Made by a program: the position numbers and the translations under genes. DNA of 64,000 nucleotides from a virus. Lineage: Duplodnaviria; Caudoviricetes. The notes beneath the pieces are model-generated. The model worked only from the letters and a program-made list of their open reading frames with translations. It searched no databases and was not told where the DNA came from. Shown piece after piece: positions 4,276-46,814 of the stretch. The DNA is taken from IMG/VR virus record IMGVR_UViG_3300030330_004093, positions 39,014-103,013 of that record. One strand, written 5' to 3'. How positions within the stretch are numbered: the first letter of the stretch is position 1; each line of letters begins with the position of its first letter.

Positions 4276-4950
4276 ATGTTTTATAAAATAATACAATTAT
4301 TAATTAATCTTTTCACATCAAAAAAAACTGAAACGGTTAATAATGATTTGGAACCACAAATTGTGGCACCGAAAGAAGAAGAAGTAATAATAGATAATAA
4401 AAAAGATAAAGACATGGAAAAAGTTTCGGAATATGTTTCATTGGCAGAAGTAACTCATAGTAATACCGCAATAAGTAAAGGATTAGATAATACACCAACA
4501 TTAAATCAGTTAATGCTTATACAATCTCTGTGTATTAATGTTTTTGATAAATTAAGAGAACACACAGGTAAACCAATAAAGATAAACTCGGTATTTAGGG
4601 GACCAGAATTAAATGAAGCTATTGGCGGGTCAAAAAATTCACAACATTGTGTGGGGTTAGACCCTAGTGAACGTAATTATGGTGCGGCAATGGATATTGA
4701 TGATTATTACTGGAGAAAGAGTATTAATAAGTTTAACAACACAGAGATGGGTGACTGGATTAGAGAGAATTTAGATTATGACCAATTAATATACGAAAGA
4801 CCTGTAAATGGTTATCCAGGGTGGATTCATGTTTCTTATAGACCAGATGGTAAAAATAGAAAACAAAACTTAATATATTTGGGTGGTGGCAAGTATATAC
4901 CATACGAAGGCAATGAAAGTATAATAAAAAATCCAGATTTGGATAAATAA
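4276..4950 (+). CDS. peptidase M15A family (Zn D-Ala-D-Ala peptidase fold), probable endolysin
   Basis: INSVFRGPELNEAIGGSKNSQH...AMDID...GWIHVSY M15A motifs. Confidence 0.85.
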   Translation: MFYKIIQLLINLFTSKKTETVNNDLEPQIVAPKEEEVIIDNKKDKDMEKVSEYVSLAEVTHSNTAISKGLDNTPTLNQLMLIQSLCINVFDKLREHTGKPIKINSVFRGPELNEAIGGSKNSQHCVGLDPSERNYGAAMDIDDYYWRKSINKFNNTEMGDWIRENLDYDQLIYERPVNGYPGWIHVSYRPDGKNRKQNLIYLGGGKYIPYEGNESIIKNPDLDK

Positions 4951-4989: not shown

Positions 4990-5466
4990 ATGGAAAATAT
5001 TGATAAAAGTTTAAAATTCTTGAGTTATATAAAGACACCACTAAGCGAGAACAGTGTTAATGTATTATTAAATGCTAATAATATCAAACACAACTGTTCT
5101 GAACTATATAGTGATTTTATTCAGTCATTATTCTCCTTAATATTTGACACCTATATGGGTGATGATATAACATCAGAAATAGACAGGATATATCATTTTA
5201 AATGGTGTTGGAAGAAAAATATAGAAAACTTTAATGATGAAGGTATAAATTTTGTTGACACAAAAGAAGCTTACTATTATTTCCTAGAATTTATGTGTGA
5301 AGTATATTACTCAGTAGAACAAAAAGAGTCCAAACCACAGATACCAGAAACCATAAAAAACCTATGGTATAAGTTATTTTCATATGGGTCACAAAAGACT
5401 CGTTCTGATATTGATAACTTCATAGAGATATATAATATTTTGGATAAATCTTTAAAAAAACACTAA
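4990..5466 (+). CDS. hypothetical protein
   Basis: 158-aa ORF in operon context. Confidence 0.65.
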   Translation: MENIDKSLKFLSYIKTPLSENSVNVLLNANNIKHNCSELYSDFIQSLFSLIFDTYMGDDITSEIDRIYHFKWCWKKNIENFNDEGINFVDTKEAYYYFLEFMCEVYYSVEQKESKPQIPETIKNLWYKLFSYGSQKTRSDIDNFIEIYNILDKSLKKH

Positions 5467-25620: not shown

Positions 25621-26781
25621 ATGAAAAAATTAATTAAAAAAATATTAAGAGAAAATATAATAAGGGAAGAAAGAACTAGGGTAAACGTACCCGTACCTGA
25701 AGATGTAAAGAAAATAAAGGATGTATTCGTAAAAAATGGATACAAGTTATATATTGTAGGTGGTGCAGTTAGAGACGCACTATTAGGTAAAACACCAAAA
25801 GATTATGATTTAGCAACCAACGCTTTACCAGATAAGGTTGAAAGTATGATGCAACAAGCTGGCTTCAGAACTCTAGAAACTGGAAAAGCTTTTGGGGTTA
25901 TTAATGTATTTATTGACGATGAAGAATACGAAATAGCAACCTTTAGAACTGATGTTGGGTCTGGTAGAAGACCAGACTCTGTTGAATTTACTACAATAGA
26001 CCAAGACGTTAAAAGGAGAGATTTAACTATAAACGCATTGTTCTACGATATTGACACTGGTGAGGTGGTTGACCTTGTTGGTGGTGTTGATGATTTAAAA
26101 AATGGTATTGTTAGAACCGTTGGTTCGGCAAAAGAAAGGTTCGAGGAAGACAGGCTTAGAATACTTAGAGCAATTAGGTTCGCTGGTAGATTTGGTAGCG
26201 GCCTTGACCCAGCCGTAGACGCAGCCCTAAAGAAAGATAATAGCTTAGAGGGTATATCACCAGAGAGAATAAGAGATGAGTTCTTAAAAGGCATTAAAAC
26301 GTCTAAGAGTGTAAAACATTTTTTAAGTTTAATTGACCAGTATAACCTATGGGGTAATATATTCCCAGGTTTAACTATTAATACTTCTGATGTAGCTAAC
26401 GACAAGGACCCTATAATCACTATTGCTAATTTATTAAAAAACAACGAACCTAATAATTTAAGTAAAGTATTAAATAAATTAACATACTCTACTTCTGAAA
26501 ATAAAGCTATTACATTTTTGGTGGCTTTACAACAGTTTGATAACCCAGATAAGGTTTACATTTTTAAAAAATTACAGAATAAATCTGGGATTGGTGATGA
26601 ACAAATACTTAAATTTGGTATGTTAGCTAAATTACCTATTAGATTGATAAAACCATTTATTGGGTTTAATTTAAGTGTTAATGGTAAACAAGCACAAGAG
26701 GAGCTAGGTGTTAAACCTGGTCCAGAAATGGGTAAAGCCATTGAAAAAATGGAAATAGACAAGTTTAAGGCGTTACTATAA
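25621..26781 (+). CDS. cca: class II CCA tRNA nucleotidyltransferase
   Basis: YIVGGAVRDALLG..PKDYDLAT, EIATFR, RRDLTINAL, RFEEDRLRILRAIRF. Confidence 0.9.
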   Translation: MKKLIKKILRENIIREERTRVNVPVPEDVKKIKDVFVKNGYKLYIVGGAVRDALLGKTPKDYDLATNALPDKVESMMQQAGFRTLETGKAFGVINVFIDDEEYEIATFRTDVGSGRRPDSVEFTTIDQDVKRRDLTINALFYDIDTGEVVDLVGGVDDLKNGIVRTVGSAKERFEEDRLRILRAIRFAGRFGSGLDPAVDAALKKDNSLEGISPERIRDEFLKGIKTSKSVKHFLSLIDQYNLWGNIFPGLTINTSDVANDKDPIITIANLLKNNEPNNLSKVLNKLTYSTSENKAITFLVALQQFDNPDKVYIFKKLQNKSGIGDEQILKFGMLAKLPIRLIKPFIGFNLSVNGKQAQEELGVKPGPEMGKAIEKMEIDKFKALL

Positions 26782-27947: not shown

Positions 27948-28895
27948 ATGAAGAACAATATAAGAAGGATACTTAGGGAAAACATAAATAAGAACTATCT
28001 TGGTTTTGAAATCACGAAACCATCTAATGTTTTATATATAATGACTGGCATACCTGGGGCGGGTAAATCAACCAAAAGTAAAGAGCTAGTTGGGAACGGT
28101 AAGATATTCTCAACGGACGATAGAATAGAAAATGCAGGTGATTACAAAGACTTTTTCGATACAATGAAAAAGAATAAAAATTTCAGCGCTTTAAGTAAAA
28201 TGCATGAATTAAATTATAACTTAGCTAGTAAAGCTATGATTAAGGGCGTTAACCCTATTATAATAGATAATACTAACTTGTCACCAAGTGAACCTAAAAA
28301 ATATGTTGAAAAAGCGTTATCATTGGGTTATGCTGATTCAAATATTAAATTCATTGATGTAGGTACTGGTGGAGCTTCAGCTGAAGAATTAGCAGACAGA
28401 AACACTCACGGAGTACCTCTTGAAAGTATAAAATCTATGATTCAAAAATACAATTCACACAAACCTCTAACTTTAGAAAAAGTTTTAAATGCTAAACCAA
28501 TGGGTGGTAAGAAAAGTAAGATGTTTGCTAGTTTAGTTTTAGACAAACAATCGGCTAACAAATTAGTTGAAGCAGTTAAACAATATATTCCAGAAGGTTG
28601 GAAAATATTTGCTCACCACATGACTATTAATTTTGGTAAAGGTCTACCAGAGGACATGAAAGGTGATATTAACTCAATTAAAACAATTAAAGCCACAGAA
28701 ATTGGTGTATCTGACATGGCAATAGCCGTAAAGGTTGAAGGGTATCACTCCGACAATGAAATTCCACACGTAACTGTTGTAGTAAATACCGCAGAGGGTG
28801 GCAAACCAGTTATGTCTAATCAGATTACTAATTGGCAAAAGCTGGATAATTATATTAATTTATCTGGTGTGGTTGAAGAAAAAAAACTTTCTTAA
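27948..28895 (+). CDS. AAA_33-type polynucleotide kinase fused to 2H cyclic phosphodiesterase (Trl1-like end-healing module)
   Basis: GIPGAGKST, IIIDNTN, RNTHGVP; HHMTI and PHVTV 2H motifs, KPVMSN. Confidence 0.85.
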   Translation: MKNNIRRILRENINKNYLGFEITKPSNVLYIMTGIPGAGKSTKSKELVGNGKIFSTDDRIENAGDYKDFFDTMKKNKNFSALSKMHELNYNLASKAMIKGVNPIIIDNTNLSPSEPKKYVEKALSLGYADSNIKFIDVGTGGASAEELADRNTHGVPLESIKSMIQKYNSHKPLTLEKVLNAKPMGGKKSKMFASLVLDKQSANKLVEAVKQYIPEGWKIFAHHMTINFGKGLPEDMKGDINSIKTIKATEIGVSDMAIAVKVEGYHSDNEIPHVTVVVNTAEGGKPVMSNQITNWQKLDNYINLSGVVEEKKLS

Positions 28896-29398: not shown

Positions 29399-30287
29399 TA
29401 TTATGGATGTTGGTTCACTAGTTTATTACGCTGTAATAAATGCTTTAATGGGGTTAGGTATAATATTAGCTATACCACTAGTTTCTTTATTGGCAATATG
29501 GTTGTCTTGTCAATTTATTAAATTAATTAAAAATTAATATTAAAAATAAATACTGTAACGATGAAAGAAGAAATTGAAGACATATTGATTAACTCTTACG
29601 ATAAGTTTGGATTCTTTGATGAAACAAAAGCAACTAAAGAGTTATTAAAATTATTTGATGTTAGTTATTCTGTTTTTGACCACGAAATTATTAAAAGGAT
29701 AAGAAATAGTTCTTCCGATGCAGAAGTTCGTAGAATGATTAAAAGTAAAATTCAAAAATTATGAATAAAAAACAAAAAGAAAGACACTTAGACGTTTCAG
29801 ACAAACTGCTTAATATGGCAAATGCGTTAAGTGAAGAAGCTCATGAATCTGATGATGTTATACTAGCCCAGACCAGCAACCTACTTATGTTAGTTAGTGG
29901 TGTAATGACTGAAAAAGAAGATATAGATAAATTATCTGATATATGTGCAATGTTCTCAGCTAAAAAAATACTTGACGAGTTGGAAGATGGTGACACTTTA
30001 GACTTATCTTAAAATATTTAATAATAAATTAAAAAAAAAATAAAATTATGGGACTAGTTAAATACCCGAATAACGTATTTAGATTAAGACACGGAGGTGA
30101 TTACGAAATACCTAAATTAGGTAAAATGACATTTAATAACGGACAAGAATTTCATATAGTTGCTGATGTACTATATATGAGCGGACATCCAGTACCAGGT
30201 AACCTACAAATACCTTTAATATCTTGGATTGAAAATAACAGTACATTATTTGTTAAAGACACTAGAAATTTTTAAAATACAATAATA

Positions 30288-30611
30288 TTATTTAAAAAAG
30301 GGGTTATGTTCCATCATATATATGATGGTCCCCTCAACCTCTTTACAGGTCTTAGTAAAATCGATAACTTCGTTAACTGGTAAGTCAAACCATTCGGTCC
30401 CTCCCTCAATAGTTTTATAAGCGTGAAACTTTCTATGTAAGGAAGACTCTACTTTCTTATAATACTCAGACTCAAACTTACAAACCAAGTGTATGTCATT
30501 ACTATTTCCAGTAGACAATTCTTTAATTCGTTTATATACATCTCTTTTAGTTACTCCAATCTTAAAACGCTCGTTATCAGATAGTTCACATAATAAATAT
30601 ACTATACCCAT
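30288..30611 (-). CDS. GIY-YIG/T5orf172-type protein
   Basis: IVYLL, FKIGVT, RIKELSTGN, ESSLHRKF, GTEWF. Confidence 0.8.
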   Translation of the reverse strand: MGIVYLLCELSDNERFKIGVTKRDVYKRIKELSTGNSNDIHLVCKFESEYYKKVESSLHRKFHAYKTIEGGTEWFDLPVNEVIDFTKTCKEVEGTIIYMMEHNPFFK

Positions 30612-30710
30612 ATTATCTATGTATAATAAAAGAATAAAAAAAGTAAATAAAACTTGTATTTTAATATTTTTTTTGTATATTTATAAAAAATAACAAGATA
30701 TTCATATAAT

Positions 30711-30797
30711 ATGAAAACAATTAACAACATACTTGTACTAGTCTTATCTTTAGCAGTGGTATTTACCACAGCCGAAGCAGGTATTGTTGTTTGTTAA
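30711..30797 (+). CDS. candidate attenuator leader peptide 1 (MKTINNILVLVLSLAVVFTTAEAGIVVC)
   Basis: 28 codons with clustered CTT, CTA, TTA, TTA; precedes a terminator and tRNA-Leu(UAA)/(UAG). Confidence 0.7.
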   Translation: MKTINNILVLVLSLAVVFTTAEAGIVVC

Positions 30798-30819
30798 ACA
30801 TATTAAAAGATAATTAAGC

Positions 30820-30851
30820 AACCCTGATTCGGAAACGAGTCAGGGTTTTTT
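30820..30851 (+). terminator. attenuator-type terminator upstream of the tRNA-Leu pair
   Basis: aaccctgattcg-gaaa-cgagtcagggtt plus T-run. Confidence 0.9.
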
Positions 30852-30891
30852 GTTATATAAACTTTAATAAAACATAATAAATTAAAAAGTC

Positions 30892-31047
30892 ATGGATGAA
30901 ATAAGAAAAAGAACGATTAGAGAATGGGCGGCTCAAGGTATATTGGGTCATATTATAGACAACCTCCTCGAAACTCTAGAAGAAACTGAAATTGAGGATA
31001 TGGATGAGATTAAAAACGAAAATCAAACCATAATTAGACACAATTAA
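30892..31047 (+). CDS. 51-aa acidic protein, absent from the ORF track
   Basis: MDEIRKRTIREWAAQGILGHIIDNLLETLEETEIEDMDEIKNENQTIIRHN, A-rich leader. Confidence 0.6.
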   Translation: MDEIRKRTIREWAAQGILGHIIDNLLETLEETEIEDMDEIKNENQTIIRHN

Positions 31048-31056
31048 TAACTATAC

Positions 31057-31131
31057 GTACCAGTGCGGAAATTGGCAAAGCCGAACAGACTTAAAATCTG
31101 TTGATTAGGAGTTCGAATCTCCTTTGGTACA
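31057..31131 (+). tRNA. tRNA-Leu(UAA), short variable loop
   Basis: GUACCAG/UUGGUAC acceptor, ACAGA-CU UAA AA-UCUGU, AGGAG-UUCGAAU-CUCCU. Confidence 0.9.
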
Positions 31132-31136
31132 CTTAT

Positions 31137-31211
31137 GCCCAAGTGCGGAAATTGGCAAAGCCGAATGGTCTTAGAAACCATTGATTAGGAGTTCGAGTCT
31201 CCTCTTGGGTA
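31137..31211 (+). tRNA. tRNA-Leu(UAG), short variable loop
   Basis: GCCCAAG/CUUGGGU acceptor, AUGGU-CU UAG AA-ACCAU. Confidence 0.9.
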
Positions 31212-31235
31212 CTTTTTAACTTAATTCTAATTAAA

Positions 31236-31469
31236 ATGGAAATTAAAAAAAGAGCTTGGGATAATTTCTTAGATGCTGTGGATTTTGAATCTGACACTAG
31301 TAATTTTAAATATGATTTTAAAGTTATGACTAAAAAATATGGGCAAGCTTTTATGTTTTATTGCATAAACGCTTGGGAAATTAACAATGATGTGATGTCT
31401 GAAAAAGAATTTTGTGAGATGAATGGTAACATTCCAGAAGGTTATTTTAAAAAAATTATAAAAAAATAA
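31236..31469 (+). CDS. hypothetical protein (only one Leu in 77 aa)
   Basis: ORF directly after the tRNA-Leu pair. Confidence 0.6.
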   Translation: MEIKKRAWDNFLDAVDFESDTSNFKYDFKVMTKKYGQAFMFYCINAWEINNDVMSEKEFCEMNGNIPEGYFKKIIKK

Positions 31470-31537
31470 ATATTATGTTGCACAGTAATAAATTTATTTG
31501 TATATTTGCGCTTATAATAATATAAAAATAAATAATT

Positions 31538-31891
31538 ATGTTTACATTAAAAGGAAAATTAATCGTTAAGGGTGAGGAAAAGCAAATCACTGAAAAATTT
31601 AAAAAGAGAGAATTCGTAATCCAAGACGATTCTGAACAGTATCCCCAAGTGATATCGTTCCAATTAGTTCAAGACAAGTGTTCTTTGTTAGAAACTTATA
31701 ATGAAGGTGACGTTATCTCAGTTAACTTTAACGTTAGAGGTAGAGAATGGGTTTCACCTAAAGATGGAGAAACTAAATATTTCAACAGCCTTGAGGCTTG
31801 GAAATTATCTGGTGAAAATGATGCGCCGACTCAAATTCCCACAGCAGTTAGTAATACTAACACTGGTGAAGAGGATGACTTACCATTTTAA
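31538..31891 (+). CDS. DUF3127 family OB-fold protein (SSB-like, DDLPF tail)
   Basis: FKKREFVI, YPQVISFQLVQDK, FNVRGREW, YFNSLEAWK, DDLPF. Confidence 0.85.
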   Translation: MFTLKGKLIVKGEEKQITEKFKKREFVIQDDSEQYPQVISFQLVQDKCSLLETYNEGDVISVNFNVRGREWVSPKDGETKYFNSLEAWKLSGENDAPTQIPTAVSNTNTGEEDDLPF

Positions 31892-31979
31892 TAATGGTTT
31901 AATTTTATAAAAGTAATTGAAAGGACCTAATCGGGTCCTTTCTAATTATAGCTATATATTTATATATAAAGTTTAAACA

Positions 31980-32933
31980 ATGAAAAAAATACTATTATAC
32001 CTAACATTGTTATTGTTCTTAACAAAGACTTATGGTCAGTGTGATTACGATGTGTCTAGTTCATTACCAAGCACGTTGGTTTTAAATGATGGGGACACCC
32101 TTTGCGTTGGTAGTGATTTAACAACCACAGCCACTATAGTTATCAATAGCGGAGGTATAATATCTATAAGTAATAATTCTGATTTAAAGATAAACGGTTC
32201 GCTAACAGTTCAACCAGGGGGTAGAATAGAATTTTTAGACTGCAACTCAACATTAGAGGTTTATGGCAATTACACAGGACCTTATAATGAATGTGAGTTG
32301 GTAGTATATTGCGCCCCAGCATCTGCTCAAGACCCACTTACCTTGGTGTCTGGTAGTAAGACATGGAATGATTGGTGTGCTCACGGTCCACTACCAGTAG
32401 AGCTTATAGATTTTAGTGTTAAAGAGTCTGATTCTGAAATATTAGTTTCATGGGTTACTGCGTCAGAAATAAACAACCACTATTTCGAAGTTCAAACATC
32501 ATCGGATGGTATAAATTGGGAAATAATGGATATAGTTGAGGGTATGGGTAACACTATGGAGATAACCAGTTATTCAAGTTTAGTATCAACCGAAAATACA
32601 TATTTTAGATTAAGACAAGTTGATTTTGATGGTCAGTTTGAGTACTCAAATATTTTATATATCAAAAACACCAACAAGGATTCTCTAACTAAAATCATAC
32701 CAAACCCAAATGATGGTGATTTTATAATTAAACTTAATAGTGTTATAAAAGAAGAAATGGTTATAAGAATATTTGATATTAAGGGCAGTTTAGTGTGCCA
32801 TCAAATAACCATAAATGATTTAAATAGTGATATACTTATATTAAACATAAAAGATAAATTATCACCTGGTGTTTATCAAATATCAGGCATTAGTGATGAA
32901 GTCATTTTTTCTGAAAAATTAATCGTAAAGTAA
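31980..32933 (+). CDS. secreted protein with T9SS type-A C-terminal sorting domain
   Basis: signal peptide; PLPVELIDF, WVTASEINNHYFEV, YFRLRQVDFDG; IPNPNDG...IFDIKG...LSPGVY...KLIVK. Confidence 0.85.
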   Translation: MKKILLYLTLLLFLTKTYGQCDYDVSSSLPSTLVLNDGDTLCVGSDLTTTATIVINSGGIISISNNSDLKINGSLTVQPGGRIEFLDCNSTLEVYGNYTGPYNECELVVYCAPASAQDPLTLVSGSKTWNDWCAHGPLPVELIDFSVKESDSEILVSWVTASEINNHYFEVQTSSDGINWEIMDIVEGMGNTMEITSYSSLVSTENTYFRLRQVDFDGQFEYSNILYIKNTNKDSLTKIIPNPNDGDFIIKLNSVIKEEMVIRIFDIKGSLVCHQITINDLNSDILILNIKDKLSPGVYQISGISDEVIFSEKLIVK

Positions 32934-33022
32934 TTTATAATATGTCATATTGTCTGTAAATCACAAATGGTATTCTATTTGAGTGGTTATGATTTATATA
33001 ACTAATAACAAAAAAAATAATT

Positions 33023-33331
33023 ATGTTTGAAAATTTTGACGACTTGTACAACAAGTTTTTTAAGAAAAACCTAGGTGAAGACCTAAATGAACCAGATAAG
33101 GTGGTTAAATTTAATAAAAACGGAAAATCTTACGAACAAAGAGTTTGGGATTTAGATAATGGAACCATAATAAAAACCAGTATGATTTCTAGTGATTTAG
33201 GTGAATCTATTAATCCTAAAATGGGAAGAAACGCCATGAATAAATCATTATTAAATGAAGCCTTAGAATTAGCTGTTGAGGAGGAGAGATATGAGGATGC
33301 CGCTAAGATAAGGGATTATTTAAAAAAATAA
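33023..33331 (+). CDS. protein with C-terminal UvrB/UvrC (UVR) motif
   Basis: LELAVEEERYEDAAKIRD. Confidence 0.75.
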   Translation: MFENFDDLYNKFFKKNLGEDLNEPDKVVKFNKNGKSYEQRVWDLDNGTIIKTSMISSDLGESINPKMGRNAMNKSLLNEALELAVEEERYEDAAKIRDYLKK

Positions 33332-33706
33332 TAACATACATGTACTACTTAACAACCCATCTGTAATATTTATATATAGATGGGTTTTATTTTGCTCATA
33401 TAATTTAAAATAAAAAATATTGAAATCTTAAATAATGAAAGACATTAGTAAACATATATTTTCTAAAGAATTAAACAACAACATAGATAACCCAGTAAAA
33501 CCATCTGACAAAAACACAATATGGAAGGTATTTAACGAAGCAGATTGGAAAACTTTTCCGAAAGGGATGGGTAAATTTTTTACTTGTGATAAGTATGGAA
33601 ATAAAAAATGGGAAGAATGGGGACCTTATTTTGGTGAATTAAGTTCACACACAGATTGGGTAAACAAAGGAATATCTCATTGGTTAACCAAAAAAGCGTA
33701 TTAATA

Positions 33707-34315
33707 ATGAAAAAGCTAATTAAAAAACTATTAAGGGAACAATTATTTAATGAAATTAAATATGACTCCTCTAACATAAGTGAAGATATAGGGTTGTTTA
33801 TCATACGAAAAAACACTCTAATGTTATATGATATGTTAGAGTATGATGATAGTGAAAGAATAAGAGGCGTTAAGGGGATAATAACACTATCTGATGAAAA
33901 CGGAAAGTATTCTGTAAACAAAGTTGCTGCCGTTAAGGGCTACGGTCCGATTATGTACGAATTAGCCATGCAACATATATACCCAAATCCACTTATATCT
34001 GACAGGGATGGAGACACCAGAGAAGGTGCTTTAGGTATATTACAAAAATTTAGTCAAGGTATAAATAAAGAAGTTGAAGTAACTACACTACAACCAAATG
34101 ATTTAGAATATGTTGAGTGTTTAGAATTTGGTTGTGATGATAATGAACCAGAGTTTTTTAAACTACATAACTCAGAATTTAAAATGTCTAACAAATCACT
34201 ATATAATAAATTAAAATATGAAGGTGAGGAGTTTCTGGAAGACGTAGGTTTTGAATTTATTGACGAATTAGAGGGGTTAGGTTCAGATTTTTTTGATAAA
34301 ATGTACATGTCGTGA
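33707..34315 (+). CDS. hypothetical protein with LLRE tag, possibly GNAT-like
   Basis: MKKLIKKLLREQ; VAAVKGYGPIMYE. Confidence 0.55.
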   Translation: MKKLIKKLLREQLFNEIKYDSSNISEDIGLFIIRKNTLMLYDMLEYDDSERIRGVKGIITLSDENGKYSVNKVAAVKGYGPIMYELAMQHIYPNPLISDRDGDTREGALGILQKFSQGINKEVEVTTLQPNDLEYVECLEFGCDDNEPEFFKLHNSEFKMSNKSLYNKLKYEGEEFLEDVGFEFIDELEGLGSDFFDKMYMS

Positions 34316-34624
34316 AAAAATTAATACTATTAATACTGTTTTTATTATTAATTACATCTTGTGAAATAGAGTATGAAAAAGCAATATATTCTGTTGATGA
34401 TATTGTGATAATAAAGCCAGATAGTTCAACAGTTAAGATACTAGATTACACAACTTGGTCAGACCACACAAAATATACTGTTGAATATTTGGACACTACC
34501 AAAAAAAGTATTATATTAGAGGAAGAAATTATTAATTATAAAAATAATTAAAAAAAAATTATATTATTGAAACTTTTTACATATATTTGTAATATATATT
34601 AATAACTATTTTAATTAAATATAG

Positions 34625-34726
34625 ATGAACTTTATAATTGACATACATACATTCGAACAAAATTCACAAGGTGGGACGCCGAGTGAAACGGGTTGTTGTT
34701 TGTTGATTTTGCCAGATAAATTCTGA
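34625..34726 (+). CDS. candidate attenuator leader peptide 2 (MNFIIDIHTFEQNSQGGTPSETGCCLLILPDKF)
   Basis: lies between promoter TATATTTG (34582) and terminator; contains GAC, CAT, TTC, GAA, CAA, TCA, CCG and CCA codons matching the downstream tRNAs. Confidence 0.65.
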   Translation: MNFIIDIHTFEQNSQGGTPSETGCCLLILPDKF

Positions 34727-34748
34727 CAAGGAGTTCAAAAGAAATTAC

Positions 34749-34779
34749 AACCCAATTCAAAAACGAATTGGGTTTTTTT
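34749..34779 (+). terminator. attenuator-type terminator upstream of the 9-tRNA array
   Basis: aacccaattc-aaaaac-gaattgggtt plus T-run. Confidence 0.9.
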
Positions 34780-34797
34780 GTGCAATTATTTTAATAA

Positions 34798-34873
34798 CGA
34801 GTAGTAGAGGAGCTAGGTTTATCTCGCTTGCTTTGGGAGCAAGAGCACACAGGTTCAAATCCTGTCTACTCGA
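34798..34873 (+). tRNA. tRNA-Pro(UGG)
   Basis: CGAGUAG/CUACUCG; CUUGC-UU UGG GA-GCAAG. Confidence 0.9.
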
Positions 34874-34882
34874 CTAAAACAT

Positions 34883-34953
34883 TGCCTCATGGTGTAATGG
34901 TAACACATCTGTCTTTGACACAGAGATTTAAGGTTCAAATCCTTATGAGGTAA
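34883..34953 (+). tRNA. tRNA-Gln(UUG)
   Basis: UGCCUCA/UGAGGUA; UCUGU-CU UUG AC-ACAGA. Confidence 0.9.
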
Positions 34954-34959
34954 CAATAT

Positions 34960-35031
34960 GGTGGTTGAAGCTTTAAGGTGAAGCGTTAGACTGTGAATCT
35001 AAAGAAAACGGCTCGATACCGTTCTACCACC
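34960..35031 (+). tRNA. tRNA-His(GUG)
   Basis: G-1, C73; UUAGA-CU GUG AA-UCUAA. Confidence 0.88.
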
Positions 35032-35036
35032 CACCT

Positions 35037-35108
35037 AGGAGTGTAGTTCAAAGGATAGAACACTAGGCTACGAACCTGAAGATGTGGGTTCGAATCCTAC
35101 CACTCCTA
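35037..35108 (+). tRNA. tRNA-Arg(ACG)
   Basis: AGGAGUG/CACUCCU; AGG-CU ACG AA-CCU. Confidence 0.88.
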
Positions 35109-35114
35109 CAACAT

Positions 35115-35189
35115 CTAGAGGGATAACGATGGTTGTTTACCCGCCTTGGACGCGGGAGGCTGTAGGTTCGAATCCTACTCTCTAGACCA
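35115..35189 (+). tRNA. second tRNA-Pro(UGG), atypical D-arm, encoded CCA
   Basis: CUAGAGG/UCUCUAG; CCCGC-CU UGG AC-GCGGG; G instead of U at position 8. Confidence 0.75.
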
Positions 35190-35235
35190 AGTGTCAGTTT
35201 ATTGCGATTCTGAACAGAAACAAAAATTAGCTACT

Positions 35236-35322
35236 GGAAAGACAAGCCAATTGGTGGTGGCCGCTGACTTGAAATCAGTTAGGAGTTAATGACTCGTAGG
35301 GGTTCGACTCCCTTTCTTTCCG
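35236..35322 (+). tRNA. tRNA-Ser(UGA)
   Basis: GGAAAGA/UCUUUCC, G73, long variable arm; GCUGA-CU UGA AA-UCAGU. Confidence 0.9.
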
Positions 35323-35331
35323 CATTAATTT

Positions 35332-35402
35332 GGAATTTTCGAATAATGGTAGTTCGCCTGGTTGAAGCCCAGGAGGTAGGGGTTCGACTCTCTTAGATTC
35401 CA
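35332..35402 (+). tRNA. tRNA-Phe(GAA)
   Basis: GGAAUUU/AGAUUCC; CCUGG-UU GAA GC-CCAGG. Confidence 0.88.
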
Positions 35403-35407
35403 CACAA

Positions 35408-35480
35408 CATCGGTTCGGCAAGCTGGTTAAGCCATCACCCTTTCAAGGTGAAGTCACGGGTTCGAATCCCGTACCGATGA
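35408..35480 (+). tRNA. tRNA-Glu(UUC)
   Basis: CAUCGGU/ACCGAUG; UCACC-CU UUC AA-GGUGA. Confidence 0.9.
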
Positions 35481-35485
35481 CTAAT

Positions 35486-35558
35486 GGATGGTGTGGTGTA
35501 ACGGCTTGCATACTTGCCTGTCACGCAAGAGGTCGGGGTTCGAATCCCCCACCATCCG
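35486..35558 (+). tRNA. tRNA-Asp(GUC)
   Basis: GGAUGGU/ACCAUCC; CUUGC-CU GUC AC-GCAAG. Confidence 0.9.
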
Positions 35559-35909
35559 CATTTTATTAGTATTTACTATTGCTATTTATTAAATTTTTAT
35601 TATATTTGGGGTATGAAAAATAAAGTACTAATAGACATGGATACAGAAAGAGAAGACGTAATCAGAGTATCCAAACCAGAACAAGAGTTAAACGAAGTGT
35701 TAGATGATGAAAATACGGCTAAAAAAATGTTATATGACGACCTAACAACCTTATGTAACGGATTAGGTTCATTAATAAAATATGGTGAAGATAAAAAGTA
35801 TTTTGAAGGTGAGCCAGTAGCTGAAATATGTATTAAATTCTTAAAAGATAACTTCAGTACATTAGATGGTGATTAATTTTTTTAGTCATTATTATATATT
35901 TATATTCAT

Positions 35910-36245
35910 ATGGGTATTAGAAAAGCTAGAAAACCAACTAAAAAATCAACAACAACTAATAGTGGTGCAAGAACTAAAAAACCAACAACAAGAAAAACTA
36001 CAACAAGAAAAACTACAACAAGAAAAACTACAACTAAAAAAACTACAACTAAAAAACCAACAACTAGTAACAATAAGTCCACTAGTGTAAAAATTAACCC
36101 AAATAATTATGTTAGAATTAGTGAAAACTCAAACCCAGCTAAATTCAATGAAATGGGTCAAAAGGTTCAGAAGGGTTTAGTAAAATGGGCTTATTACGCA
36201 ATTGATGGTAATGTTGGATATCATTACTACTTAAAATTAAAATAA
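35910..36245 (+). CDS. basic histone-like protein with (R/K)KTTT repeats
   Basis: 15-nt tandem repeats aagaaaaactacaac encode KKPTTRKTTTRKTTTRKTTTKKTTTKKPTT. Confidence 0.7.
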   Translation: MGIRKARKPTKKSTTTNSGARTKKPTTRKTTTRKTTTRKTTTKKTTTKKPTTSNNKSTSVKINPNNYVRISENSNPAKFNEMGQKVQKGLVKWAYYAIDGNVGYHYYLKLK

Positions 36246-36247
36246 TT

Positions 36248-36643
36248 ATGTTAATCGAAAAAATAAACAAGGACTTCATGTCAGCTTATAAAGCTAAAGA
36301 AATGGTTAAAAAAGACTTTCTAGGTGTTTTAAAAACTGAAGTCAGTAGAGAAACTAAAGTACCTAATGACGATATAGTTATAGCTAAAATTAAATCAATG
36401 ATAAAAAATGCTGAAGCTACTAATTCATTAACCGATTACGAATTAAACATACTAAGCAATTACTTACCAAGTCAAATGACTGAGGAGGCATTAACGTTGG
36501 TAATTACCACCTGTATATCCAGTAATAAGTATTCTGAAATGAAGGACATGGGTAAAGTAATGGGTTGGTTAAAATCAAATTATAATGGAAAGTATGATGG
36601 TAAGTTGGCATCTAAGATAATAAAGGAAATCTTAAATAAGTAA
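36248..36643 (+). CDS. GatB/YqeY domain protein
   Basis: KDFMSAYKAKE, ILSNYLPSQMTEE, MKDMGKVM, YDGKLAS. Confidence 0.88.
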   Translation: MLIEKINKDFMSAYKAKEMVKKDFLGVLKTEVSRETKVPNDDIVIAKIKSMIKNAEATNSLTDYELNILSNYLPSQMTEEALTLVITTCISSNKYSEMKDMGKVMGWLKSNYNGKYDGKLASKIIKEILNK

Positions 36644-44827: not shown

Positions 44828-45674
44828 TTTTAAATTTTTTAGATAAAAATTTGTATTATCCAAATAAGTTTCTTATATTTACTTTGTAACATTAAAAAAA
44901 CGATTATTATGGCTATTAAAATTTGGGAAAACGGTAGGTTAAGTAAAGAAGTTAAGGGTATTATTGATAATGGTTATACGGTTAAAGCTGGTAACATTAG
45001 TGGCAACTCTATTGAAGAGGTAGAAACACTTACATCGTATGTTTATTATGGCAATAAGGAAGCCAGGGATAAAGACTTAAAAGAAATTCAAGAATTAATT
45101 AAATATAATAAGAATGATTAAATTAAAAACTCCTGAAGTAGCTTATTTGTTTAAGTTAGTCAATAAGGACCTAAAAGAGCATGGTATAGAAATGCGGATA
45201 GGTCAAGCAATTATGAATAATCTTAGGGCTATTCATTATGATTCATATGCGTATTTAACCGAAACAAATGTGGACCCATTTTACAATGAAAATAATGTAC
45301 TTGATTCCATCAATGAGGTTTCTGAATTGAATATTAGTGAGGTGTATGAATTATTAAGTAATTCAATAAGTGAAGAATTTAAATATAAATTAAAAATAAT
45401 TGGGGAATGCGTAAAGTAATCAAATTCGATAAAATACTTTATCTTATATTACTATCTTTAATATTAGTGGGATATACCACAATAGATGATGGAAAAAACG
45501 AAATTATGGATTATAAAAATTATGATGTATGTTTGTATAGAAATGATACATTATACATAATAAATAATGATATAGGTAATTTGGTAAATACGATATGGGA
45601 ATGTGATTCTGATTCCATCACAGAAAAACCTATAATAGTTTTGGTTGACAAATTACCGAAATAATAAATTTAAA

Positions 45675-46814
45675 ATGGAATTAACTATCATAAAATACAT
45701 AAAGGAAAACGGATTGCATAAATCAGTCTCAGACTTCAAATTGAAGGTACGAGAGTATGATTCAAAAATACTTTTGAAGTACGACCAAATAGAGTCTTCT
45801 ATGGGGTTATTTGAAGTACAAGATTGTAGAGGACTTATACTTGAAAAAGACACCTGGAACATCATGTGTTTATCTTTCAGAAAGTTCTTCAACAACTCTG
45901 AAGGTCACGCAGCTAGAATAGACTGGAATACCGCTCACGTACTTGAAAAGTTAGATGGTACGATGATACAAGTATATTGGGACTGGAACAAGGAAGAGTG
46001 GTTCGCCGCTACTACTGGTACAGCTGAGGGTGAAGGTCAAGTAAATAACAAATACGGGACTACCTTCAATGAGTTATTCTGGAACACTATGGATAATAAG
46101 TATGGTTTAAGTAAGGAACATTTAACATCTAGAAGTGGTTTCGTTAAGGGATACGTATATGTATTCGAATTGACTACACCATACAACATAGTAGTCAAAC
46201 CACATGCGGAATCTTCAGCTACATTATTAGCTATTAGAAATTTAACAGGGTTAGTTGAATTAGATTATGGTTCAATGAAATCAATAGCTAAGTCTATGGG
46301 ATTTCCAGTCGTTAAAAGATATGACCTTAACGCTAAGAACGCTGGTACCATTATAAAAACATTTGAGAATATGGTATGGTATGACGAAGGTTATGTTGTA
46401 GTGGATGGTAACTTCAATAGGGTTAAGTTGAAAAACCCAGCCTATGTTGCGGTTCACCACTTGAAGTCCAAGACCTCTGAACATGCAATAATGGATGTTG
46501 TTAAGACAAATGAAATTGAAGAATTCGCATCTACTTTCCCAGAAAGAAGAGAAGAGATTTTCAATCTTCATAAAAATTACAATGGATTAATCGATAAGTT
46601 AAACAACTTATGGATAACACTTGAAACATTGAAACCAAAAAATATAACCGCTGGTGAAAAAAAGAGGTACGCAATGGAAGTGTTCAAGACATGCGAGGAA
46701 AATAACATAAAGAACTTTACTGGTCTTTACTTTAGTTTAGCAAATAATAAAGTTAATAGTGTTAATGATTTTATGTTTAATTACGACAACAAAAAGTTGT
46801 ACAATATATTATAG
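45675..46814 (+). CDS. T4 Rnl1-like RNA ligase
   Basis: CRGLIL, FRKFFN, EKLDGT (motif I), FELTTP, DEGYVV, VKLKNPAY. Confidence 0.88.
   Translation: MELTIIKYIKENGLHKSVSDFKLKVREYDSKILLKYDQIESSMGLFEVQDCRGLILEKDTWNIMCLSFRKFFNNSEGHAARIDWNTAHVLEKLDGTMIQVYWDWNKEEWFAATTGTAEGEGQVNNKYGTTFNELFWNTMDNKYGLSKEHLTSRSGFVKGYVYVFELTTPYNIVVKPHAESSATLLAIRNLTGLVELDYGSMKSIAKSMGFPVVKRYDLNAKNAGTIIKTFENMVWYDEGYVVVDGNFNRVKLKNPAYVAVHHLKSKTSEHAIMDVVKTNEIEEFASTFPERREEIFNLHKNYNGLIDKLNNLWITLETLKPKNITAGEKKRYAMEVFKTCEENNIKNFTGLYFSLANNKVNSVNDFMFNYDNKKLYNIL

Follow-up and report, generated by a model that had tools for sequence, protein, structure and literature searches.

Leader-peptide attenuation is known from the classical trpL, hisL, leuL, pheL and thrL systems and from the multivalent ilv and thr leaders. 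These attenuators share with the phage units described here a promoter, a short open reading frame (ORF) carrying regulatory codons, mutually exclusive 1:2, 2:3 and 3:4 pairings and a terminator placed before the regulated genes. In Escherichia coli, the pheM leader controls pheST, encoding phenylalanyl-tRNA synthetase. Bacteroidetes possess a tryptophan leader that is represented in Rfam as RF01692 (Bacteroid-trp; Weinberg et al., 2010, PMC2864571). The tRNA genes of phages, in turn, are usually seen as constitutive cargo that offsets differences in codon usage or the loss of host tRNAs. The author of an earlier note on the DNA studied here knew of no account of attenuator-controlled phage tRNA genes. 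This agrees with the literature we searched, in which leader-peptide or attenuator control of tRNA genes is not described (subscription-only papers were not covered).

We analyzed a window of 64,000 nucleotides, which is part of a 103-kb contig of an uncultured virus estimated to be ~29% complete. We propose that positions 30654–30851 of this window form a ribosome-mediated (leader-peptide) transcription attenuator which gates a 51-codon ORF and two tRNA-Leu genes. We consider this reading likely, with the proviso that no expression, 3'-end or ribosome data support it. We refer to the element as unit 1; all of its parts lie on the plus strand and its anatomy is directly visible. A pattern scan placed a promoter-like site of the Bacteroidetes type at 30654–30683 (TTG-N19-TATATTTA) with one mismatch to the TAnnTTTG −7 box, and its function is inferred from the consensus only. 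The ATG of the leader ORF (30711–30797, 28 codons) follows 27 nt downstream of the end of this site. Codons 1–7 read MKTINNI, the conserved start of the leader family described below, and codons 8–17 constitute the regulatory core, in which the Leu codons CTT, CTA, TTA and TTA occupy codons 8, 10, 12 and 14 (30732–30752). The ORF is conserved in a 94%-identical relative (L004), where unit 1 is almost unchanged.

The earlier note, made from the sequence alone, had described a 28-codon ORF with these four Leu codons, followed by a terminator and by tRNA-Leu(UAA) and tRNA-Leu(UAG), and all of this held, positions included. Its description of the Leu codons as clustered at codons 8–14 held only in part: the positions are right, but the Leu codons are separated by Val and Ser codons rather than forming a run. 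Leu accounts for four of 13 core codons (p=0.02), a modest enrichment in a single leader; unit 1 taken alone is merely suggestive, and it is the comparison with relatives that decides. Both downstream anticodons are covered, with TTA as the cognate of UAA and CTA as that of UAG. Val codons are as numerous as Leu codons (four), and no tRNA-Val that would match them is present in the 103-kb contig (~29% complete). The encoded peptide looks like a signal sequence or a membrane-spanning segment. On the minus strand (30288–30611), a T5orf172/MUG113 (GIY-YIG-related) gene points away from the leader promoter. Similar GIY-YIG-related genes are scattered, together with HNH genes, throughout the tRNA regions of relatives, which suggests that mobile endonucleases may have reshuffled the tRNA arrays.

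We then considered the RNA. Segment 1 (30708–30737), defined by the minimum-energy fold and duplex energy, is the partner of segment 2 (30772–30805), which lies at the end of the leader ORF and was defined by duplex and masked folds. Within segment 2, 30776–30805 pairs with segment 1, or 30772–30794 pairs with the 5' arm of the terminator, and 19 nt are common to both pairings. Segment 3 (30814–30831) comprises this 5' arm plus 6 nt upstream and is the antiterminator partner of segment 2. The intrinsic terminator (3:4, 30820–30851, −19.5 kcal/mol) starts 23 nt behind the stop codon and consists of a 12-bp stem (30820–30847) including six G-C pairs, a GAAA loop and a T-run reaching 30851.

The minimum-energy fold of 30700–30860 (−49.2 kcal/mol, z −6.75) was not equaled by any of 200 shuffles and contains the terminator plus a 1:2 helix between 30716–30735 and 30778–30795. 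The 1:2 pairing of 30723–30735 with 30778–30791 claimed in the earlier note therefore held (duplex energy −19.3 kcal/mol, z about −4.9). The alternative pairing of segment 2 with the terminator arm, which had been called imperfect, held as well and is stronger than claimed (−14.9 kcal/mol, z about −3.2). When 30718–30765 was masked as if occupied by a ribosome and the 3' arm was left untranscribed, 30772–30793 paired with 30815–30831 over ~17 bp. Masking segment 1 thus yields the antiterminator only as long as the 3' arm is missing; with the whole terminator present, the equilibrium optimum retains the terminator. As the terminator is kept at equilibrium despite masking, any switch has to be a kinetic one, as it is in classical attenuators.

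Between the terminator and the tRNA genes lies a 51-codon ORF (30892–31047, plus strand) that the earlier note had omitted. It has no Pfam match and belongs to no known family; a gene is called in the same place in L004. On read-through, this ORF is probably co-transcribed with the tRNAs, an inference from the arrangement. The genes for tRNA-Leu(UAA) (31057–31132) and tRNA-Leu(UAG) (31137–31212) follow on the same strand, each 76 nt long and scoring 55.7 and 55.8 bits, respectively, in an Rfam scan. Bacterial tRNA-Leu typically has a long variable arm, whereas both genes of the window have a short variable region along with a large D-loop and the discriminator base A. Relatives carry such short-form tRNA-Leu genes alongside canonical tRNA-Leu genes of 85–87 nt. 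Directly after the short tRNA-Leu genes, 31236–31469 encodes a 77-residue protein without a Pfam family. Its 15 homologues are all metagenomic and it adjoins short tRNA-Leu genes in every related contig examined, so that a functional link between the two is possible.

The 103-kb contig contains only two tRNA clusters and both carry a leader unit. Unit 2 (34582–34779, plus strand; −7 box, ORF and terminator scans) has an exact Bacteroidetes −7 box, TATATTTG, at 34582–34589, a leader of 33 codons (34625–34726) and a terminator (34749–34774) followed by a T-run. The first gene of an array of nine tRNAs (Pro, Gln, His, Arg, Pro, Ser, Phe, Glu, Asp; 34798–35559, plus strand) begins 24 nt past this terminator. 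The unit-2 leader holds cognate codons for seven of eight downstream anticodons. Taken alone, it showed no significant amino-acid enrichment (8/13, p=0.056) and no significant coverage over the whole peptide (P=0.25), with P=0.04 for coverage by codons 3–22. Units 1 and 2 have a 12-mer in common, which lies in segment 2 of unit 1 and is read in different frames in the two leaders. Within the array, the tRNA-Ser with anticodon UGA (35236–35321) scored 49.1 bits on the Rfam selenocysteine tRNA model (gathering threshold 47), which in all likelihood reflects no more than its long-arm class II shape.

Related units were gathered from uncultured phages in two independent collections, one through the contigs that encode homologues of the neighboring 77-residue protein and one through a DNA pattern covering the conserved first seven leader codons. 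This pattern is blind to downstream content and yielded at least 120 stretches when IMG/VR was scanned. The 55 units obtained represent 27 non-redundant leader types (<60% core identity). On the homologue contigs, tRNA clusters again lie behind a short ORF plus terminator, and the central residues of the ORF match the tRNAs. Among the pattern matches, tRNA genes follow in 43 of the 45 that have an ORF of ≥15 codons and a terminator, and in none of the 39 without a terminator. The scan also yielded new leader types, each agreeing with its tRNA array. No cultured relatives were found by blastn or tblastn against deposited phage genomes. We conclude that unit 1 probably belongs to a large family of attenuators ahead of tRNA clusters, carried by large uncultured phages whose hosts are of the Flavobacteriia type.

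The leaders differ in which amino acids they present. Alternating Ser/Leu cores stand ahead of Leu and Ser tRNAs (L003, L010), Thr/Cys/Arg/Leu/Ser cores ahead of Thr, Cys, Arg and Leu tRNAs (L005, L006, L008), and the core FDFAFFAAEED ahead of Phe, Glu, Asp and Ala tRNAs (L007). The core LVLCLCVLVL precedes Cys, Val and Leu tRNAs; unit 1 falls into this Cys/Val/Leu leader type (alignment A3), the members of which precede tRNAs for these three amino acids. The 50-codon leader of L006 contains all 15 amino acids of its 15 tRNAs (P=0.0006, 28-residue stretch). The core of L110, LPFMPTVEFQLKI, is followed by exactly ten matching tRNAs (Gln, Phe, Met, Thr, Val, Leu, Glu, Pro, Ile and Lys; P=3e-5).

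Two further arrangements were observed. L008 carries tandem leader-plus-terminator units (4816–4943 and 5288–5445) ahead of a single tRNA cluster; the terminator of the first is nearly that of unit 1 of the window, and no tRNA gene separates the two units. Phage-type tRNA leader units are also present in contigs assigned to metagenome-assembled genomes (MAGs), namely L136 (6786–6917; ‘uncultured Mollicutes’) and L198 (minus strand; ‘Saprospiraceae’), and they are of the Cys type and the Phe/Tyr/Ser type. These contigs are most likely phage sequences that were mis-binned.

The pattern also occurs in bacterial genomes, which provided a positive control. A Cellulophaga leader (L142, 61–114) with the start MKTITNI and a WWW core precedes trpE and scores 75.5 bits on RF01692. 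In Flavobacteriaceae (L191, 3706–3759, minus strand; L151), ilvD is preceded by a leader of 17 codons and a terminator. This leader has the same seven-codon start and a high content of Ile, Leu and Val; it remains below every Rfam gathering threshold and likely represents a host branched-chain amino-acid attenuator that is not yet curated as an RNA family.

We analyzed the match between leader codons and tRNAs across the 27 types. The amino acids of the leader’s own downstream tRNAs are overrepresented in codons 8–20, with a summed z of 112.2. Permuting the tRNA sets among types gave 23.0±9.3 with a maximum of 60.8, so that none of the 20,000 permutations was as high as the observed sum. The signal is confined to the ATG frame, as the summed z was −2.7 and −7.1 in frames +1 and +2. 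At the level of codons, a unit’s own leader supplies a wobble-cognate codon for 142 of 157 downstream anticodons (90%), compared with 98.6±5.6 for permuted leaders (0/5,000). This frame-specific correspondence shows that leader codons and tRNA genes vary together. The attenuator reading is thereby supported through both recurrence in related phages and covariation of leader codons with anticodons, a check that had been proposed beforehand and turned out strongly positive.

The choice among synonymous codons is less clear. Where a CGN-reading tRNA-Arg lies downstream, 10 of 17 Arg codons are of the rare CGN kind, against a background share of 0.14 (p=2e-5). CGN use in units with and without such a tRNA did not differ significantly (Fisher, p=0.16), owing to the small number of units in which tRNA-Arg(UCU) is the sole tRNA-Arg. 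For units serving just one Leu, Ser or Arg box, agreement of the synonymous box was found in 27 of 46 cases versus 23.6 expected, which is not significant (z 1.1), and the preference for wobble-cognate codons overall was marginal (z 1.96).

These results bear on the idea of an RNA-only switch, in which tRNA or another ligand is sensed directly as in a T-box or riboswitch, or in which the locus is a small RNA gene, the ORF being incidental in either case. The strong fold and the RNA-level 12-mer found in different frames of the two window units speak for it. Against it, the match to the tRNA set exists in the ATG frame only (112 vs −2.7 and −7.1), and the ATG, the ORF length and the distance from stop codon to terminator (16–35 nt across the family) are conserved. 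Moreover, the leader start is that of known translated host leaders, and an Rfam scan of 29500–36500 gave no match at E≤1 except tRNAs, neither to RF01692 nor to the T-box. We regard an RNA-only switch as very unlikely.

Leader-peptide attenuation further requires alternative pairings, and we assessed these across the family. RNAalifold applied to a MAFFT alignment of 21 Phe/Glu/Asp/Ala-type units (A2) did not recover the terminator, the hairpins being structurally unaligned. Duplex energies compared with shuffles and a swap test of own against foreign partners were used as alignment-free replacements. Complementarity of 1:2 and 2:3 exceeded that of shuffled sequences in nearly all of the 27 types (mean z −2.9 and −3.1), with z for 2:3 negative in every one of them, and in 21 types both pairings use one and the same part of segment 2. 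In the swap test, segment 2 paired with its own terminator arm at −14.07 kcal/mol versus −8.24 kcal/mol with the arms of other types (0/20,000), and segment 1 paired with its own segment 2 at −14.47 versus −10.06 kcal/mol with those of other types. The swap test demonstrates covariation of the alternative pairings without any alignment.

Besides the pairings, the 27 types have kept the leader length, the start motif and the spacing to the terminator. In 14 of them, the first tRNA follows the terminator within ≤31 nt, so that a separate tRNA promoter, which the earlier note had listed as a refuting observation, is excluded there by lack of room. Twelve of the 27 types have an exact TAnnTTTG upstream of the leader, and only one has it in the spacer between terminator and tRNA. 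The window’s own spacer of 209 nt is longer and contains no Bacteroidetes −7 box according to the pattern scan. A weak sigma-70-like match overlaps 30850–30878, but the sigma-70 scan (26 sites vs 16±4 expected) is uninformative in AT-rich DNA. It remains possible that this spacer, with its 51-codon ORF, hides a promoter of a type other than those scanned for.

One might therefore ask whether the leader ORF is an ordinary small gene for a signal-peptide-like hydrophobic protein with its own terminator, and the tRNAs are coincidental neighbors with a promoter of their own. In phages, small hydrophobic ORFs with a terminator behind them are frequent. The signal- or transmembrane-like window peptide, the 209-nt spacer and the weak sigma-70-like match within it are in favor of this view. 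In contrast, cores at the homologous position are acidic/aromatic, basic/polar or hydrophobic, each tracking its tRNA set, and this wide difference in chemistry combined with adherence to the downstream tRNAs argues against a conserved peptide function. In addition, the 12-mer occurs in both window units in different frames, and more than half of the types leave no room for a promoter. An ordinary small gene is thus a very unlikely explanation.

A third alternative concerns unit 1 itself, which might be a relic of a working Cys/Val/Leu attenuator that now acts as a leaky terminator or a small-ORF cassette without meaningful codon-specific control. In support of this, relatives have Cys, Val and Leu tRNAs behind leaders of the same type (L007, 2705–2838; L109; L021; L136), whereas only two tRNA-Leu genes follow unit 1. 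The 51-codon ORF occupies the place of the relatives’ Cys and Val tRNAs, and the Val codons are left without a tRNA. On the other hand, all three pairings of unit 1 are intact and strong, the unit is nearly unchanged in L004, and a tRNA-Val may reside in the unsampled ~70% of the genome. The Cys codons have disappeared in step with tRNA-Cys; that the core has none fits the loss of tRNA-Cys and, given that one codon was kept for each remaining anticodon, suggests continued selection. We consider a relic unlikely. The Val mismatch, the intervening ORF and the absence of expression data nevertheless remain our main reservations regarding unit 1.

We favor the attenuator reading and propose the following mechanism, in which the direction of the switch, the dependence of read-through on stalling and tRNA supply as the natural signal are inferred. 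Transcription would start from the promoter-like site and the 28-codon leader would be translated at once. If the core is decoded rapidly, the ribosome is predicted to reach the stop codon and to cover segment 2, 3:4 would form, and transcription would terminate before the tRNAs. Without translation, 1:2 and 3:4 would both form and termination would be expected as well. If aminoacyl-tRNAs for the core are scarce, the ribosome would stall at codons 8–17 and, in doing so, would cover segment 1, a step likewise inferred. Segment 2, set free in this manner, may pair with the 5' arm of the terminator immediately upon its synthesis, the terminator would not form, and read-through into the tRNA genes would result. 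The newly made phage tRNAs would relieve the stall and shut the switch, creating negative feedback.

A caveat is that stalling reports aminoacyl-tRNA. Starvation for an amino acid would trigger the switch too, and additional tRNA would not help in this situation. The earlier note had proposed that the phage senses loss of tRNA-Leu through starvation or an anticodon-nuclease defence. This claim remains an inference, both in the distinction between a shortage of tRNA and one of amino acid and in the link to nucleases.

A bolder reading would view the leaders as multi-codon ‘decoding test strips’ in a circuit that combines counter-defence and homeostasis. Here, depletion or cleavage of host tRNAs, for example by anticodon nucleases or by a shutdown of the host tRNA supply, would cause stalls and thereby switch on the replacement tRNAs that are needed, and the strips would act alongside tRNA-repair genes of the same window. 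The window encodes an enzyme of the CCA-adding/poly(A) polymerase family (25621–26781), a P-loop (AAA_33) kinase (27948–28895) and a T4 Rnl1-family RNA ligase (45645–46814). CCA-adding enzyme, kinase and ligase together resemble a set for tRNA end-healing, sealing and repair. Such genes fit a role in coping with tRNA damage but do not demonstrate it. We hold this bolder reading only tentatively and consider it less likely than not.

If the attenuator reading is true, large phages gauge decoding speed codon by codon and produce blocks of tRNAs on demand with feedback, and a textbook mechanism gains a new regulated target. To our knowledge, there is no other cis-regulatory logic for tRNA gene expression that reads the tRNA’s own function. 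Each leader would predict the tRNAs supplied by its operon, and mismatches between leader and tRNAs would be traces of tRNA genes lately gained or lost. The leader elements would also represent compact, programmable sensors for the supply of specific tRNAs.

How do the phage units compare with the systems known so far? One of these is the RF01692-type host leader, with which they have the matching seven-codon leader start and the same layout of −7 box, leader and terminator in common. RF01692 carries Trp codons and precedes the trp operon, whereas the window leader has no Trp codon, is followed by tRNA genes and does not score on RF01692 at E≤1. The start common to host trp and ilv leaders points to the origin of the element and to the host clade (Flavobacteriia), and a host leader of the RF01692 type was probably the ancestor or template of the phage elements. 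T-box riboswitches resemble the phage units in that tRNA status decides between terminator and antiterminator. They bind uncharged tRNA directly via a specifier codon and without translation, whereas the phage signal is confined to one reading frame. Like the phage units, pheM directs attenuation at the decoding apparatus rather than at a biosynthetic enzyme, but it controls a synthetase, senses a single amino acid and is chromosomal. The ilv and thr leaders share with the phage units the ability to sense several amino acids together. Unlike classical attenuators, which use runs of one or two amino acids, the phage leaders present up to 15, most of them represented by one to four codons; their segment 2 is part of the ORF, immediately ahead of the stop codon, and the units are carried by phages. 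The regulated genes are tRNA genes, so that the sensor measures the very product it controls. The phage units are therefore best regarded, in all probability, not as members of RF01692 but as classical leader-peptide attenuation that has been retargeted to tRNA genes.
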